Virus record (IMG/VR): IMGVR_UViG_3300037472_000016
Span: 31,216-95,215 of that record
Length of the DNA: 64,000 nt
Direction: 5' to 3' (one strand)
DNA from: a virus
Shown: piece after piece, positions 38,886 through 50,098 of the stretch
Numbering within the stretch: the first letter of the stretch is position 1
Layout: every line of letters begins with the position of its first letter
Notes under the pieces: generated by a model
Told to the model about the DNA's origin: nothing
The model's database searches: none
The model's input: the letters and a program-made list of their open reading frames with translations, nothing else
Translations under genes and position numbers: made by a program

Positions 38886-38958
38886 GCCTTGTTAGTTCAG
38901 CGGATAGAATACCTCTTTCCTAAAGAGTAGGTCACTGGTTCGAGTCCAGTACAGGGCA
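38886..38958 (+). tRNA. tRNA-Arg(CCU)
   Basis: GCCTTGT/ACAGGGC acceptor; loop TT-CCT-AA; T arm ACTGG-TTCGAGT-CCAGT. Confidence 0.85.
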
Positions 38959-38992
38959 CGCATTGAGTGATGATGTTTGTCATTCTTTTCAA

Positions 38993-39066
38993 CGGAATGT
39001 AGCTCAGCTTGGTAGAGCGTTCGGTTTGGGTCCGAAAAGTCGCAAGTTCAACTCTTGTCATTCCGA
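38993..39066 (+). tRNA. tRNA-Pro(UGG)
   Basis: CGGAATG/CATTCCG; TTCGG-TTTGGGT-CCGAA. Confidence 0.9.
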
Positions 39067-39068
39067 CT

Positions 39069-39139
39069 GTGGCTGTCGTCCAAAGGCAGGACAACAGTTT
39101 GTGGAACTGTGAATGAGGGTTCGATTCCCTCCGGTCACC
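39069..39139 (+). tRNA. tRNA-His(GUG)
   Basis: GTGGCTG/CGGTCAC with C73; ACAGT-TTGTGGA-ACTGT. Confidence 0.88.
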
Positions 39140-39162
39140 GACACAATTAAATAGTGTATACT

Positions 39163-39258
39163 GTAATTAGCTCCACACAGGGCAAGGTCGCACTTTAGGA
39201 TGGTTTGTTACCAAAATTCCGGGCCATATGCAAGGTTCTGTGTGGGGCATTACTTTTT
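39163..39258 (+). ncRNA. Putative ~90-nt rod-like ncRNA
   Basis: TATACT just upstream; 14-bp closing stem GCTCCACACAGGGC/GTTCTGTGTGGGGC; inner stem ATGGTTTG/CGGGCCAT; followed by a U-tract. Confidence 0.5.
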
Positions 39259-39259
39259 G

Positions 39260-39337
39260 GTCATGAGCGCTGGGACGCAAAGGAGACTGTAAATCTCTTT
39301 CCAATCGGATAGACGAGTTCGATTCTCGGGCATGGCA
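39260..39337 (+). tRNA. Atypical tRNA-Tyr(GUA)
   Basis: GGAGA-CTGTAAA-TCTCT; variable arm TCC-AATC-GGA; T loop TTCGATT; short D arm and 6-bp acceptor. Confidence 0.6.
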
Positions 39338-39535
39338 CTCAACGGTAAAATGTTGTGATACAATTGGAGCTATGATGAAAAAGCAAGTACAGAGAGCCTG
39401 GACAAACGTCCGTCTCTTTGGGCTGCTTGGAGTCAAGTAAAAAAGCTACTTGACAAAATCAATTGCAGCCCCTAGAATATATCTGGGGGCTTTCTGCATA
39501 TGCACTTTTAAAAATAAACAGAGAAAAATTTGTAT

Positions 39536-39609
39536 GCTTCTATAGCTCAGTTGGTCAGAGCATTCGCCTCTTAAGCGAAGGGTCCAAAGTTCAAGTCTTT
39601 GTGGAAGCA
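39536..39609 (+). tRNA. tRNA-Lys(CUU)
   Basis: GCTTCTA/TGGAAGC; TTCGC-CTCTTAA-GCGAA. Confidence 0.92.
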
Positions 39610-39622
39610 CGCAATACAAAAT

Positions 39623-39696
39623 GCCCCTGTAGCTTAGCTGGTTAGAGCATCCCGCTCATAACGGGACGGTCCTCGGTTCAAGTCCGAGTGGGGGCA
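39623..39696 (+). tRNA. tRNA with CAU anticodon (elongator Met or Ile2)
   Basis: GCCCCTG/TGGGGGC; TCCCG-CTCATAA-CGGGA; no initiator features. Confidence 0.88.
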
Positions 39697-39697
39697 C

Positions 39698-39793
39698 TAT
39701 CCTGGCGGTTCAAATCCGCATAAAAGCTGGTTGCAAACGGCTTTAGTCGCTGCTTTACTACGCGGGCGGTGATACCCATGGCGGGGCAGGGTA
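39698..39793 (+). ncRNA. tRNA-like RNA with permuted arm order
   Basis: Closing stem TATCCTG/CAGGGTA encloses a T arm, a GCA hairpin, a 7-bp acceptor-like hairpin and a D-like arm. Confidence 0.55.
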
Positions 39794-39802
39794 CAGTTTT
39801 AT

Positions 39803-39876
39803 GCTTCTATAGCTCAGGTGGTCAGAGCAACGCTCTTTTAAAGCGTGGGTCCTCGGTTCGAGTCCGAGTGGGGGTA
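39803..39876 (+). tRNA. tRNA-Lys(UUU)
   Basis: ACGCT-CTTTTAA-AGCGT; acceptor rich in G-U pairs. Confidence 0.85.
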
Positions 39877-39887
39877 CGCAAGAAAAT

Positions 39888-39959
39888 GTACCTATGGTGT
39901 TAACGGTAGCATGGCGGATTCCAAACCCGCTGGTTCGGGTTCAAATCCTGATGGGTGCG
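39888..39959 (+). tRNA. tRNA-Trp(CCA)
   Basis: GTACCTA/TGGGTGC with G73; loop TT-CCA-AA. Confidence 0.8.
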
Positions 39960-39993
39960 CTAAGGTGGCAACAGCCTTAAAATGTTGCATCCT

Positions 39994-40064
39994 GGGGTAT
40001 TAGCATAGTGGTAATGCACGCGCCTTCCAAGCCTGTTAGGGGAGTTCGATTCTCCCATACCCCT
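39994..40064 (+). tRNA. tRNA-Gly(UCC)
   Basis: GGGGTAT/ATACCCC with U73; loop CT-TCC-AA; one C-C mismatch in the anticodon stem. Confidence 0.82.
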
Positions 40065-40097
40065 CGAACCAAGTATTTCTCTTAATATTTGGTTTAC

Positions 40098-40172
40098 GCC
40101 TCTTTAGCTCAGCCTGGCCAGAGCGTCGCTCTTGTAAAGCGAAAGTCATCAGTTCGAATCTGATAAGAGGCT
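40098..40172 (+). tRNA. tRNA-Thr(UGU)
   Basis: GCCTCTT/AAGAGGC; TCGCT-CTTGTAA-AGCGA. Confidence 0.92.
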
Positions 40173-40181
40173 CGTAATATT

Positions 40182-40253
40182 GGTTCGATAACTCAGAGGA
40201 AGAGTGCCTGCTTTACACGCAGGAGGTCGGGATTTCGAAATTCCCTCGAACCA
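40182..40253 (+). tRNA. tRNA-Val(UAC)
   Basis: GGTTCGA/TCGAACC; CCTGC-TTTACAC-GCAGG. Confidence 0.9.
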
Positions 40254-40357
40254 CTAGCCAGTATTGATAATAAAACACCAGCTAGCCTTCTAGCCGGTAT
40301 TGTATTGTCAAAAGTATTGGGTGCGTATTAGATAGATCAAAATAAAGGAACTTACGA

Positions 40358-40430
40358 GGGGGATTAGCTCAATTGGTAGAGCGCCTGCTTTGCAAGCAGG
40401 AGGTCAGGAGTTCGATTCTCCTATCTTCCA
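40358..40430 (+). tRNA. tRNA-Ala(UGC)
   Basis: GGGGGAT/ATCTTCC with G3-U70; CCTGC-TTTGCAA-GCAGG. Confidence 0.93.
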
Positions 40431-40479
40431 CTACTCACTTTAATTCGGTGGGTATGCTAAAATTAATCAGCAACACTAG

Positions 40480-40554
40480 TGGCGTATAGCTCAACGGCAG
40501 AGCAGGAAGCTGTTAACTTCAAGGTTCCTGGTTCGAATCCAGGTATGCCAGCCA
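40480..40554 (+). tRNA. tRNA-Asn(GUU), CCA encoded
   Basis: TGGCGTA/TATGCCA-G-CCA; loop CT-GTT-AA. Confidence 0.92.
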
Positions 40555-40581
40555 AAAACAATACAGAGAATGAGAGGTGCA

Positions 40582-41007
40582 ATGTCCACGGTAGCAATCC
40601 TTAACATGGGTGGCCAAGAAGTCCTTGGCATTGTTCCTATTCATAAGGCAATAACAATGATTCATAGGGGTGTAGCAAGGGTTCACACCCCATCGGGAAA
40701 TGGCAAGTTTGGTCCTTACCTGATACCAGCGGCAGTTGAGTTAATCAAATACATATTTGCTAAGTGGAAATATGACCCCGGCAACAAGAGGTATTCTAAA
40801 AAAGCTGTTATGGAAAGAGACTTTTTTCTTTGCGGGTACTGTAAGGGTAAGGCCACAACTGTTGACCACATTATCCCCAAGTGCAATGGTGGTGGTTCTA
40901 GTTGGCTTAATGTTGTAGCAGCTTGTCAAAGGTGTAACCAGAAGAAGGGTGGGAGGACCCCTGAGAGCGCTGGGATGAAGCTCAAGGTTGTTCCACACAA
41001 GCCTTAG
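40582..41007 (+). CDS. HNH endonuclease
   Basis: RD..LCGYC...TVDHIIP..GG.SSWLNVVAACQRCNQKKG. Confidence 0.9.
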   Translation: MSTVAILNMGGQEVLGIVPIHKAITMIHRGVARVHTPSGNGKFGPYLIPAAVELIKYIFAKWKYDPGNKRYSKKAVMERDFFLCGYCKGKATTVDHIIPKCNGGGSSWLNVVAACQRCNQKKGGRTPESAGMKLKVVPHKP

Positions 41008-41045
41008 TAGAAACTGGTTTACGGTCCAGTCAAAGCCGTACACAT

Positions 41046-41118
41046 GCCCTCATAGCTCAGTGGATAGAGTTGCTGGTTTCTACCCAGTCGGTCGGGAGTT
41101 CGAATCTCTCTGAGGGCG
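41046..41118 (+). tRNA. tRNA-Arg(UCU)
   Basis: GCCCTCA/TGAGGGC; GCTGG-TTTCTAC-CCAGT. Confidence 0.9.
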
Positions 41119-41134
41119 CAATGATAAAACACTT

Positions 41135-41208
41135 ACCCCGTTCGTCTAACGGCAAGACGCGAGTCTTTGGCACTCGTTATCGAGGTTCGAATCCTTGACG
41201 GGGTGCCA
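41135..41208 (+). tRNA. tRNA-Gln(UUG), CCA encoded
   Basis: ACCCCGT/ACGGGGT-G-CCA; CGAGT-CTTTGGC-ACTCG. Confidence 0.9.
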
Positions 41209-47830: not shown

Positions 47831-47903
47831 CTGAACTTGAATAGTGTGTCAAAGGTTGCTACCATGGTATGCAGGCCTTCGAGTAGGTGAAAAGCCTACG
47901 CTT

Positions 47904-47977
47904 GGGGTGGTAGCATAACTGGTAAATGCAGAACGCTTATATCGTTCCGACAGAGGGTTCAAGCCCCTCCCACCCTA
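47904..47977 (+). tRNA. tRNA-Ile(UAU)
   Basis: GGGGTGG/CCACCCT with A73; GAACG-CTTATAT-CGTTC; upstream TGCTACCAT promoter. Confidence 0.85.
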
Positions 47978-48009
47978 CCCAGCAATTTTAAAACAAACAA
48001 TTAAGGAGA

Positions 48010-48642
48010 ATGCTTATGGCAGAAAAAATGGTACAAACTGGTTATGGAACTCCCGTTCAAGACGTTCCCAGGGAGCTAGAGTTGGTAAGAACTAAAGCTG
48101 CCGAAAAGCAGGCGCGGTACAGGAAAAACAAGACTGTAGTCGAAAAACAAAGTAATGAAAGATACATCAAGCAGGAAAGCAAGAGGGCCACTCGCCCACA
48201 GATCGATCAGAACGGAACCCTATATCTGGCGATAGTGCTTTCAGTCATTACGTTCTTGGCATCAGCCGCACTCGTTGCTAATGGAACTATCGGTGTGGCA
48301 GTGTTTATGGGGCTAGCTTATGACTGGCTGGCTTGGCTAGTCTTTGGTGCCCTTGAGGTAGCTATCCTAACCTTCCTGCTGTTCTATTTGATGATTGGTT
48401 CTCGTTCAGAAGACCAGGGCGGCGGAGAGAAGGTTGCAGAGCTTTGGTTTAGGCTAATGGTTGGTTTCTCTGCGATTGTTATTGTTGCAAACGGATTCCA
48501 CACTCTTGAGTTCTGGAACTTTGCTTGGCAAGAGCCTAGGATGTATGTAGGTGCCGCTCTATCAATGATCGTTCCACTGTCTTACGTGCTTGTCTCAAAG
48601 GGGCTTTCAACCGTAGTATTTGCTAAGTCTATAAAAGCTTAG
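48010..48642 (+). CDS. Four-TM membrane protein
   Basis: Charged N-terminus followed by four hydrophobic helices. Confidence 0.65.
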   Translation: MLMAEKMVQTGYGTPVQDVPRELELVRTKAAEKQARYRKNKTVVEKQSNERYIKQESKRATRPQIDQNGTLYLAIVLSVITFLASAALVANGTIGVAVFMGLAYDWLAWLVFGALEVAILTFLLFYLMIGSRSEDQGGGEKVAELWFRLMVGFSAIVIVANGFHTLEFWNFAWQEPRMYVGAALSMIVPLSYVLVSKGLSTVVFAKSIKA

Positions 48643-48649
48643 CCCCACA

Positions 48650-48762
48650 GCCCCTGTAGCTCATTGATAGAGCACCGAACGGCAGACGACAGCGGATTAG
48701 TCCTCGTAAAAGGCTACGCACTGTATCGGTTGTAGTGAGTTTGATTCTCACCAGGAGCACCA
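48650..48762 (+). ncRNA. tRNA-Thr(CGU)-like RNA with a 55-nt anticodon arm and encoded CCA
   Basis: GCCCCTG/CAGGAGC-A-CCA; D arm GCTC/GAGC; T arm GTGAG/CTCAC; long nested arm with apical CT-CGT-AA. Confidence 0.75.
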
Positions 48763-48763
48763 A

Positions 48764-49453
48764 TTATTTTTCGTACTGGCTTTTGCTGGGGAACATATCA
48801 AAAAGAATGTCTTTGCCCAGGGTAGCAAAAGACGCATCATTGCTAGATAGGTAAGGGCTAACTCCACTAAGGTAGTCGTATGAATGACTCATAGAGGAGC
48901 CACTCTCATACACCTTAATGTCCTTGGTTTCCTCTCCACCAATATCAAAGATGTTTCCGTAGGCAGTTCTTATCATAAGATAGTTTCTTCTTTGTGCCTC
49001 GTCTATTCCACTCTTGGTAATTTGCATGGGGACATGCATCTCGTAATCTATTGGATGCTGGTGACCAGAGGCTTTAAGTTTTCTATATGTAAGCATTAGC
49101 CTCTTTGTGTATGAACCCTGTGAAGAAAGTTTGGAGTACTGAGCAATCTTTTTTGAAAGAAGTCCTCCATTTAATACTGGGATGTTTGATAGTTTTTTTA
49201 TTGTAAAAAAGTCATCGTTCATCATAATGATGCTTTCTGAAACGTGTGGGTTAGACACTGCCGCTTTCCAGTTTGCTTTTGCATTCTCCTGTTTGCTTTG
49301 CTGCTGAGGCACCTCTATGTAGTCTCCTAGGTACCAGTCTGGCTTGCCCCCCACAACCCACACACGACCGCTGGGCAGGTTTTCAGCGGTAGCCCTAAGC
49401 GAATACCTAAGCTCTTCATTGTCACCATCACGACAGATATAAACGTAGTCCAT
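48764..49453 (-). CDS. Stealth-like sugar-phosphotransferase / glycosyltransferase
   Basis: MDYVY...NEELRYSLR...MMNDDFF...HVP resemble Stealth CR1/CR2 motifs. Confidence 0.6.
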   Translation of the reverse strand: MDYVYICRDGDNEELRYSLRATAENLPSGRVWVVGGKPDWYLGDYIEVPQQQSKQENAKANWKAAVSNPHVSESIIMMNDDFFTIKKLSNIPVLNGGLLSKKIAQYSKLSSQGSYTKRLMLTYRKLKASGHQHPIDYEMHVPMQITKSGIDEAQRRNYLMIRTAYGNIFDIGGEETKDIKVYESGSSMSHSYDYLSGVSPYLSSNDASFATLGKDILFDMFPSKSQYEK

Positions 49454-49488
49454 ACTCTAATTTTATCACAGTGCTATACTTGTCTTAT

Positions 49489-49743
49489 ATGTTGAAGGCA
49501 TCTGAATACCTCCCTGTACTGAGACGGTACAAAGAGAGTAGCGGCTGCATGGATTGTCACGCTGAATACCCCCATTACATGCTAGAGTTCGATCACAGGC
49601 CGGAACACAAGAAGCTTGACAACGTTTACAGGGTCTTGAAGAAGTATGGAGTTGACATGGCGTGGAAAGAGATATCCAAGTGTGATGTGGTCTGTGCTAA
49701 TTGTCACAAGATCAGGACATGGCAACGACTTGAAGATTCTTAA
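49489..49743 (+). CDS. Small HNH endonuclease
   Basis: CMDC...LEFDH...EISKCDVVCANCH. Confidence 0.8.
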   Translation: MLKASEYLPVLRRYKESSGCMDCHAEYPHYMLEFDHRPEHKKLDNVYRVLKKYGVDMAWKEISKCDVVCANCHKIRTWQRLEDS

Positions 49744-49776: not shown

Positions 49777-50098
49777 GGGAGTGACAGGTTTCGATTGGTC
49801 ACATAGACCGAGGGAAGCACGCAGCGCTGGGTAGCGCTTTAGAAATTGCTCAAACCAAATAAGTGCAAGCAACCAAAGCACATACGCTCTAGCTGCCTAA
49901 CAGTGGCTCCAGCACCCAATTAGCAGTGGTTTCGCTGGGCAATTGGTTCTTTAAATAATGAAGCAACGCCTTACCTTTGAACCAGTTTGTGCATTAGGGT
50001 TAGTACATATGCACGATGTAACACAGAACTAACTAAGCGTGTAGAAGACTCGTAACATTTGTTCCAAGACGGGGTTTCGACTACCCCCACTTCCACCA
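49777..50098 (+). ncRNA. ssrA: tmRNA; tag reading frame ASNQSTYALAA* (49865-49900)
   Basis: 5' GGGAGTGACAGGTTTCGA; 3' GACGGGGTTTCGACTACCCCCACTTCCACCA; G3-U70 pair; AATAAGT-GCA resume context. Confidence 0.93.

Follow-up and report, generated by a model that had tools for sequence, protein, structure and literature searches.

A tRNA-shaped phage RNA with a near-invariant 47-nt arm in place of the anticodon loop

Results

The window considered here, a stretch of DNA of 64,000 nt, comes from a 95-kb IMG/VR phage contig whose DNA is found mainly in salt-lake metagenome runs. Within it, a 121-nt intergenic space separates the stop codon of a gene coding for a 210-aa predicted membrane protein of no Pfam or PHROG family (48010-48642, plus strand) from a convergent 229-aa gene belonging to phrog_7999 (48764-49453, minus strand). 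A search with the tRNA model RF00005, combined with direct reading, places in this space an RNA gene (48650-48762, plus strand) that starts 8 nt after the stop codon of the 210-aa gene. An earlier note on this DNA had described the RNA as abutting a convergent Stealth-like gene and lying close to a tmRNA. Both neighbours are present, the former with a Stealth_CR2 match that is weak (E 3e-4, below the Pfam cut-off), the latter at 49777-50098 according to both ARAGORN and Rfam. Just upstream of the tmRNA, a 90-aa ORF (49471-49743) matches phage HNH endonuclease families over their C-terminal part only and may be the remnant of a homing endonuclease.

ARAGORN with default settings and an Rfam scan, each run on the whole window, list 15 tRNAs and the tmRNA and miss the gene at 48650-48762. 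A local RF00005 search of a 311-nt region recovers it at 48650-48759 with 40.1 bits (E 2.6e-07, gathering score 29), in an alignment that covers the entire model (positions 1-71) and in which 47 nt occupy the place of 9 anticodon positions. At the level of this region, a canonical tRNA cloverleaf is thus found, with a 7-bp acceptor, D and T arms and a score above the gathering threshold. Direct reading and RF00005 bear out the body proposed in the earlier note: an acceptor stem in which GCCCCUG (48650-48656) pairs with CAGGAGC (48752-48758), followed by the discriminator A73 and an encoded CCA that ends at 48762, a D arm GCUC-AUUGAUA-GAGC (48659-48673), and a T arm GUGAG-UUUGAUU-CUCAC that spans 48730-48751 together with the variable loop UUGUA. 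The same two approaches recover the 55-nt arm at 48675-48729, to which RF00005 assigns the 47-nt insert. The acceptor stem contains a C3.A70 mismatch that had escaped the earlier note.

The D loop carries G18 and A19 and the T loop carries U56, as expected from the proposed replacement of the G19-C56 elbow pair by A19-U56. Because the two other lineages described below have G19 and C56 (alignment A4), this is a genuine double change within the family, and such a compensatory switch argues that the L-shape is under selection. A 3′ CCA is encoded by none of the 15 canonical tRNAs of the window (38886-41208 and 47903-47981); its presence in the long-arm RNA alone may reflect a different origin or a different maturation route.

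BLAST against GenBank phages matched positions 48672-48729 of the window to an unannotated gap in the Microbacterium phages SadLad and RubyRalph (E 6e-5). RF00005 identifies the SadLad gap as a tRNA (46.3 bits), also with a 47-nt replacement, on a body unlike that of the window (acceptor GGGCGGG, T arm GGAGG). Fransoyer, another Microbacterium phage, is a close variant of SadLad, and the locus of the RNA is left without annotation in all three phages. A 17-nt core pattern then identified G001, a complete 53.8-kb IMG/VR phage with terminal repeats, which displays the arm on yet another tRNA body. Outside its cap the arm is invariant between the window and G001, and it is ~80% identical between the window and the SadLad group; the RNAs of G001 and SadLad are 81% identical over 90% of their length. 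The tRNA bodies of the carriers differ from each other by compensatory changes. Homologues of the long arm, the absence of which the earlier note would have counted against its own reading, are therefore present in two other phage lineages. The carriers range from 46% G+C (window, a salt-lake phage) through 58% (G001) to 69% (Microbacterium phages), and the CCA is encoded in the window and SadLad but not in G001. In G001 and SadLad, the long-arm RNA is the sole tRNA-shaped gene. In SadLad (L044:1440-1476) and in G001 (L046, minus strand), 1-4 nt separate the 5′ end of the RNA from a strong G+C-rich hairpin that precedes it and could serve in processing or termination.

The long-arm RNA is found in none of the relatives of the genes that flank it in the window (31 Stealth-like loci, 4+7 loci of the 210-aa gene). 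Ordinary tRNAs come directly after the Stealth-like gene in these relatives, and the slot between tRNA-Ile(UAU) and the Stealth-like gene, occupied here by the 210-aa gene and the RNA, is variable. In IMG/VR, two exact patterns designed on window-specific stretches retrieved nothing and four designs of exact patterns on the arm core retrieved G001 only, plus one chance hit (L045). The family is thus rare, as four differently designed IMG/VR scans yielded no member beyond G001. Among the matches listed, a pattern scan of genome_contigs contained only chance ones, which says nothing about bacteria, and the same type of scan on 401 Actinomycetota genomes gave one chance hit, located within a terminator hairpin.

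At the SadLad locus, the Gillianvirus phages Marcie (L047:1158-1231) and Kelcole (L048:1158-1233) carry a tRNA of 74-76 nt that shares its acceptor and T arm with SadLad. This tRNA has a different D arm, a 6-nt anticodon loop, CGAUAU, and G3.U70, and is annotated either as tRNA-OTHER or as tRNA-Tyr(ata). Marcie differs from SadLad from the D arm through the variable loop and not by a simple insertion. Given the 6-nt anticodon loop of Marcie and Kelcole, the tRNA-shaped lineage at the SadLad locus is non-canonical with or without the arm, and the gene of Marcie and Kelcole is probably also a non-decoding mimic.

The architecture of the arm was derived with RNAalifold from alignment A4, which comprises five sequences from three independent lineages. 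Besides the cloverleaf, RNAalifold returned an arm composed of stem P1 (CCGR/YCGG), a bulged A, stem P2 (RCGG/CUGY), a 9-nt loop, CAGACGACA, that faces a single A, stem P3 (GCG/CGC), an asymmetric loop (GAUYAGU/CYA) with one invariant G-C pair, and stem P4 (CCUC/GAGG) with its cap. On the plus strand of the window, the 5′ strands of P1 (CCGA) and P2 (ACGG) lie at 48675-48682. They are followed by the 9 unpaired nucleotides of loop L1 (48683-48691), which are identical in all three lineages apart from single-base variants, and by the invariant 5′ strand of P3 (GCG, 48692-48694), which pairs with 48717-48719. The 5′ side of loop L2 (GAUYAGU, 48695-48701) contains the invariant G that pairs with the C at 48714. 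The P4 hairpin itself (CCUC-GUAA-AAGG, 48702-48713) consists in the window of 3 bp and a C.A mismatch under a GNRA-type tetraloop cap, and the 3′ side of the arm (48714-48729) reads CUA (L2), CGC (P3), A, CUGU (P2), the bulged A and UCGG (P1).

Our comparative model retains part of the fold drawn in the earlier note and replaces its tip. The stems CCGA/UCGG, ACGG/CUGU and GCG/CGC were also returned by RNAalifold, and two of their pairs covary. By contrast, conservation does not extend to the apical stem UAGUC/GGCUA and its CU-CGU-AA loop. The cap varies between lineages (GUAA in the window, GGGA in G001, AGCU or AGUU in the SadLad group), and the relatives form CCUC-GGGA-GAGG and CCUC-AGYU-GAGG; the apical stem and loop proposed earlier are therefore specific to the window. 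What had been taken for an anticodon loop at the tip of the arm, with extra sequence on both sides, is a short P4 hairpin with a variable cap. The comparative model outscores the earlier fold by 7 kcal/mol in G001 and trails it by 2 kcal/mol in the window alone. Since the folding energy of the window arm is at the level of shuffled sequence (z = 0.15), support for the fold of the arm is comparative.

In a pair count on an independently written structure, 98.6% of the cells of A4 are paired. Nine pairs change on both sides; the acceptor accounts for four of them, the T stem for three, and P1 and P2 for the other two (A4 pairs 31-79 and 32-77, from A-U to G-C). None of 500 shuffles reaches this number, and slid controls give 1-3 pairs. 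With only three independent lineages known, covariation within the arm rests on two pairs, and the stem pairs of P3 and P4 display no change on both sides. Together with the homologues in two lineages, the nine pairs support the earlier suggestion of a maintained tRNA-shaped RNA that cannot decode normally.

Population variants were taken from contigs of four salt-lake and lake runs, no RNA runs being among those listed. Two natural variants fall within the RNA, 48685 G>A in L1 (run X2) and 48706 G>C in the cap, each on one low-depth contig; Fransoyer has a further single-base variant of L1, GAUGAC. Every within-lineage variant is found at an unpaired position of the arm, and L1, altered in run X2 and in Fransoyer, tolerates single changes in two natural variants. 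A ~10%-diverged population variant has 13 substitutions and a single inserted base over the 130 nt upstream of the gene and no change in the first 29 nt of the gene (estimated P of about 0.04-0.07). Contig L037, 98.8% identical to the window, has an unchanged RNA where ~1.3 changes are expected, and is therefore uninformative.

These data bear on whether the gene could be a decaying tRNA pseudogene or a site that acts at the DNA level, such as a recombination or attachment core, without any RNA function. That default gene finders overlook the gene, that the folding energy of its arm is unremarkable and that the flanking-gene relatives of the window phage lack the RNA would all be compatible with this explanation. 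However, from one lineage to the next, the four tRNA helices and the elbow pair are all preserved by compensatory changes, the arm is retained in genomes of 46%, 58% and 69% G+C, and SadLad and G001 lack any other tRNA that could have given rise to a pseudogene. We consequently regard it as extremely improbable.

The window RNA lacks a canonical anticodon arm, that is a 5-bp stem and a 7-nt loop with U33 and a purine at position 37. The earlier note had seen a Thr-like tRNA with CGU as its anticodon. The identity set of bacterial tRNA-Thr comprises G1-C72, C2-G71, G4-C69, G5-C68 and, within an anticodon loop, G35 and U36 (PMC9976931). Only G1-C72 and C2-G71 are present in the window acceptor, which has C4-G69 and C5-G68 instead, and the apical CGU lies in a non-conserved cap, outside any conserved anticodon loop. 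The Thr reading falls since the short P4 hairpin with its variable cap takes the place of the presumed anticodon loop.

Another interpretation is that a short intron-like element interrupts the tRNA, and that its excision and rejoining of the ends would give a working molecule. Short unexplained inserts have been recorded in the tRNAs of Lak megaphages (10.1101/356790), ARAGORN with a lowered threshold proposes as its single solution a tRNA-Gln(CUG) with a 40-nt intron, and the occurrence of one and the same insert on distinct bodies might hint at mobility. Yet none of the single excisions that we enumerated, in the window and in its relatives, leaves a 5-bp stem and a 7-nt loop in which position 33 is U and position 37 a purine, hence our rejection of an intron-bearing tRNA. 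In the ARAGORN solution itself, these two positions are occupied by A and by a pyrimidine, respectively. The 5′ flank contains no U and the 3′ flank is CACUGYA; 47 nt is far below the size of a group I intron, and no intron family of Rfam matches the window RNA at E ≤ 10. A bulge-helix-bulge motif is absent from the RNAalifold structure, in which both bulges are on the same strand. Moreover, it is the entire segment from the D arm to the variable loop, rather than the insert alone, that distinguishes Marcie from SadLad, and carriers without any other tRNA would gain at best one odd Gln tRNA. An intron thus appears highly improbable.

Charging could also occur without an anticodon. In this case, the RNA would be an aminoacylatable tRNA mimic, recognized for instance by AlaRS, which serves as an amino-acid donor or as a tmRNA-like ligand of the ribosome, with the arm as a specificity element. 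Bacterial Ala determinants are G1-C72, G2-C71, G3.U70 and A73, and some 3:70 mispairs support charging (PMC9976931). SadLad and Marcie carry all four determinants, the CCA is encoded in the window and SadLad, and the C3.A70 mispair of the window is found at the very position where some mispairs support Ala charging. On the other hand, C.A is absent from the mispairs listed in PMC9976931, in G001 the 3:70 pair is an ordinary G3-C70 and the CCA is not encoded, and the invariant arm is left unexplained. Judging from these sequences, anticodon-independent charging is possible for some members and not family-wide, and we consider an aminoacylatable mimic an unlikely account of the RNA.

We also compared the arm with Y RNAs of the YrlA type, in a re-wired form of which it would dock the protein Ro60 (Rsr). 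YrlA shares the same design logic, a tRNA-like domain and a protein handle (PMC4201824), and GACGACAG in L1 is one mismatch away from the YrlA handle motif, GNCGAAN0-1G (PMC4201824), a resemblance that we estimate to arise by chance about 1 time in 10 in an arm of such size. GACGACAG is found on the strand that follows the D arm, whereas the YrlA motif is on the T-arm-side strand. The permuted topology of YrlA, with a closed acceptor and ends located at the handle, is not observed, the acceptor ends of the window RNA being free and carrying the CCA. No TROVE domain was found in the 95-kb contig of the window, in the complete genome of G001, in SadLad or in Marcie, nor in any of 121 sampled Microbacterium genomes (host sampling covered Microbacterium only), while control genomes were positive. 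The YrlA family RF02553 has no match to the window RNA at E ≤ 10, and the arm has no local similarity to the YrlA handles at the Ro60 loci of Nocardia, Streptomyces and four actinophages, where our model R1 detected ordinary tRNAs only and no such arm. With no TROVE domain in these phages or in the sampled Microbacterium genomes, no RF02553 match and no local similarity between the handles, the arm was rejected as a Ro60 handle, and a Y RNA is decidedly improbable.

Comparison of the three carrier genomes by blastp and phmmer revealed no shared phage-encoded partner, nothing being common to them except the endolysin amidase. The 210-aa protein has a homologue in G001 (29% identity; L197:12205-13029, minus strand), ~3 kb from the RNA, and none in SadLad. 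The RNA is flanked by genes for a 432-aa protein without assigned function and a helicase in G001, and for SSB and a RuvC-like resolvase in SadLad; these neighbours are replication genes. Inside the carrier genomes, no antisense target of L1 or L2 rises above chance. Given that the carriers share no protein except the endolysin amidase, a host-encoded partner is more likely than a phage-encoded one, and we infer that the partner of the arm is most likely a host protein or RNA.

Discussion

Near-identical arms on different bodies, in two unrelated phage groups, indicate a conserved non-decoding RNA rather than a broken tRNA. We propose, with moderate confidence, that the product of the gene is a stable non-coding RNA, shaped like a tRNA but not engaged in decoding, whose arm serves a conserved partner as a sequence-specific handle. 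The acceptor, D and T arms build a normal L-shaped body, which according to this proposal would allow the transcript to be trimmed by tRNA-end enzymes, to carry CCA and to resist nucleases. The 47-nt arm stands in place of the anticodon loop and, as its unpaired letters are nearly unchanged in phages of unrelated hosts, would provide the sequence-specific handle. During infection, the RNA would then act as a decoy, a sponge or an adaptor for the partner. The identity of the arm across phages could alternatively stem from recent transfer of a cassette rather than from strong constraint. As the RNA retains no anticodon loop, it is unlikely to act as a decoy against anticodon nucleases. More specifically, and only tentatively, the handle might capture some component, different from Ro60, that is universally conserved in bacteria, such as a ribosome, RNA-processing or RNA-repair factor, which phages of unrelated hosts would thereby disarm or redirect; we consider this narrower version possible though rather doubtful.

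The long arm matches no Rfam family, and our word and sequence searches of the literature found no description of the RNA. To our knowledge, the arm has no convincing likeness to the 3′ end of 16S rRNA (GGAUCA...CCUC), loop E, k-turns, small ribozymes or riboswitch aptamers. Ponchon and Dardel reportedly used a tRNA as a scaffold for recombinant RNA. In such engineered scaffolds (PMC3753655), a structured RNA replaces the anticodon loop and the chimera is reportedly processed and stable; these are artificial constructs, of which the long-arm RNA would be a natural counterpart.

Among natural RNAs, YrlA (RF02553) offers parallels of design, being non-decoding and made of a tRNA-like domain (T arm, D arm, acceptor-like stem and tertiary pairs) with a separate, conserved handle (Chen et al. 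2014, PMC4201824). YrlA of M. smegmatis is cleaved by RNase P and receives CCA (PMC4201824), and both YrlA and the long-arm RNA occur in actinobacteriophages. The two nevertheless differ in that the acceptor of YrlA is closed and its ends are at the handle, whereas the long-arm RNA has free acceptor ends with CCA and a handle that is a closed hairpin. They are further separated by the lack of a covariance-model match, by their dissimilar handles and by the absence of Ro60 from the carriers and from the sampled host genus.

The inserts described by Devoto et al. in Lak megaphage tRNAs (10.1101/356790) are likewise made of tens of extra nucleotides in the anticodon region, cause bacterial tRNA finders to miss the genes and are highly conserved in sequence between genomes, as is the case for the long-arm RNA. 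However, Lak tRNAs have assignable anticodons and belong to huge genomes with many tRNAs, while no anticodon loop can be recovered here and two of the carriers lack any further tRNA. BLAST similarity of the long-arm RNA to Lak genomes is restricted to the T arm.

The tRNA-like domain of tmRNA and the T4 RNAs rnaC and rnaD are also tRNA-derived, non-decoding and stable RNAs of bacteria and phages. A tmRNA was rejected because the 113-nt RNA has no tag reading frame, resume codon or pseudoknots and carries G3.U70 in the SadLad lineage only. In T4, rnaC and rnaD are located at the end of the tRNA cluster and rnaC retains a T arm; we excluded them as members of the family given that rnaC has only a 17.5-bit tRNA-Sec match and that no arm sequence is shared. 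We likewise excluded a 60-nt minihelix-like element of Gordonia phage Trax (L211:384-443), located inside the annotated 43-aa ORF gp91, in which an acceptor-like stem of 7 bp joins a perfect T arm and both the D and the anticodon arm are absent. Elsewhere in the window, a rearranged tRNA-like element (39698-39793) has no match to YrlA or to any other Rfam family at E ≤ 5 and no motif in common with the long arm.

Non-decoding tRNA-shaped RNAs such as tmRNA and YrlA have each revealed a distinct cellular machine. The near letter-for-letter conservation of the arm in three phage groups, on bodies that drift in a compensatory manner, points to a specific and widely conserved target. SadLad, RubyRalph and Fransoyer are in culture and have a laboratory host, which makes the function of the RNA directly testable. 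Standard tRNA and RNA-family annotation is blind to this RNA. If the narrower version given above is correct, it would represent a new class of phage non-coding RNA, in which a natural tRNA scaffold displays a nearly invariant 47-nt handle.
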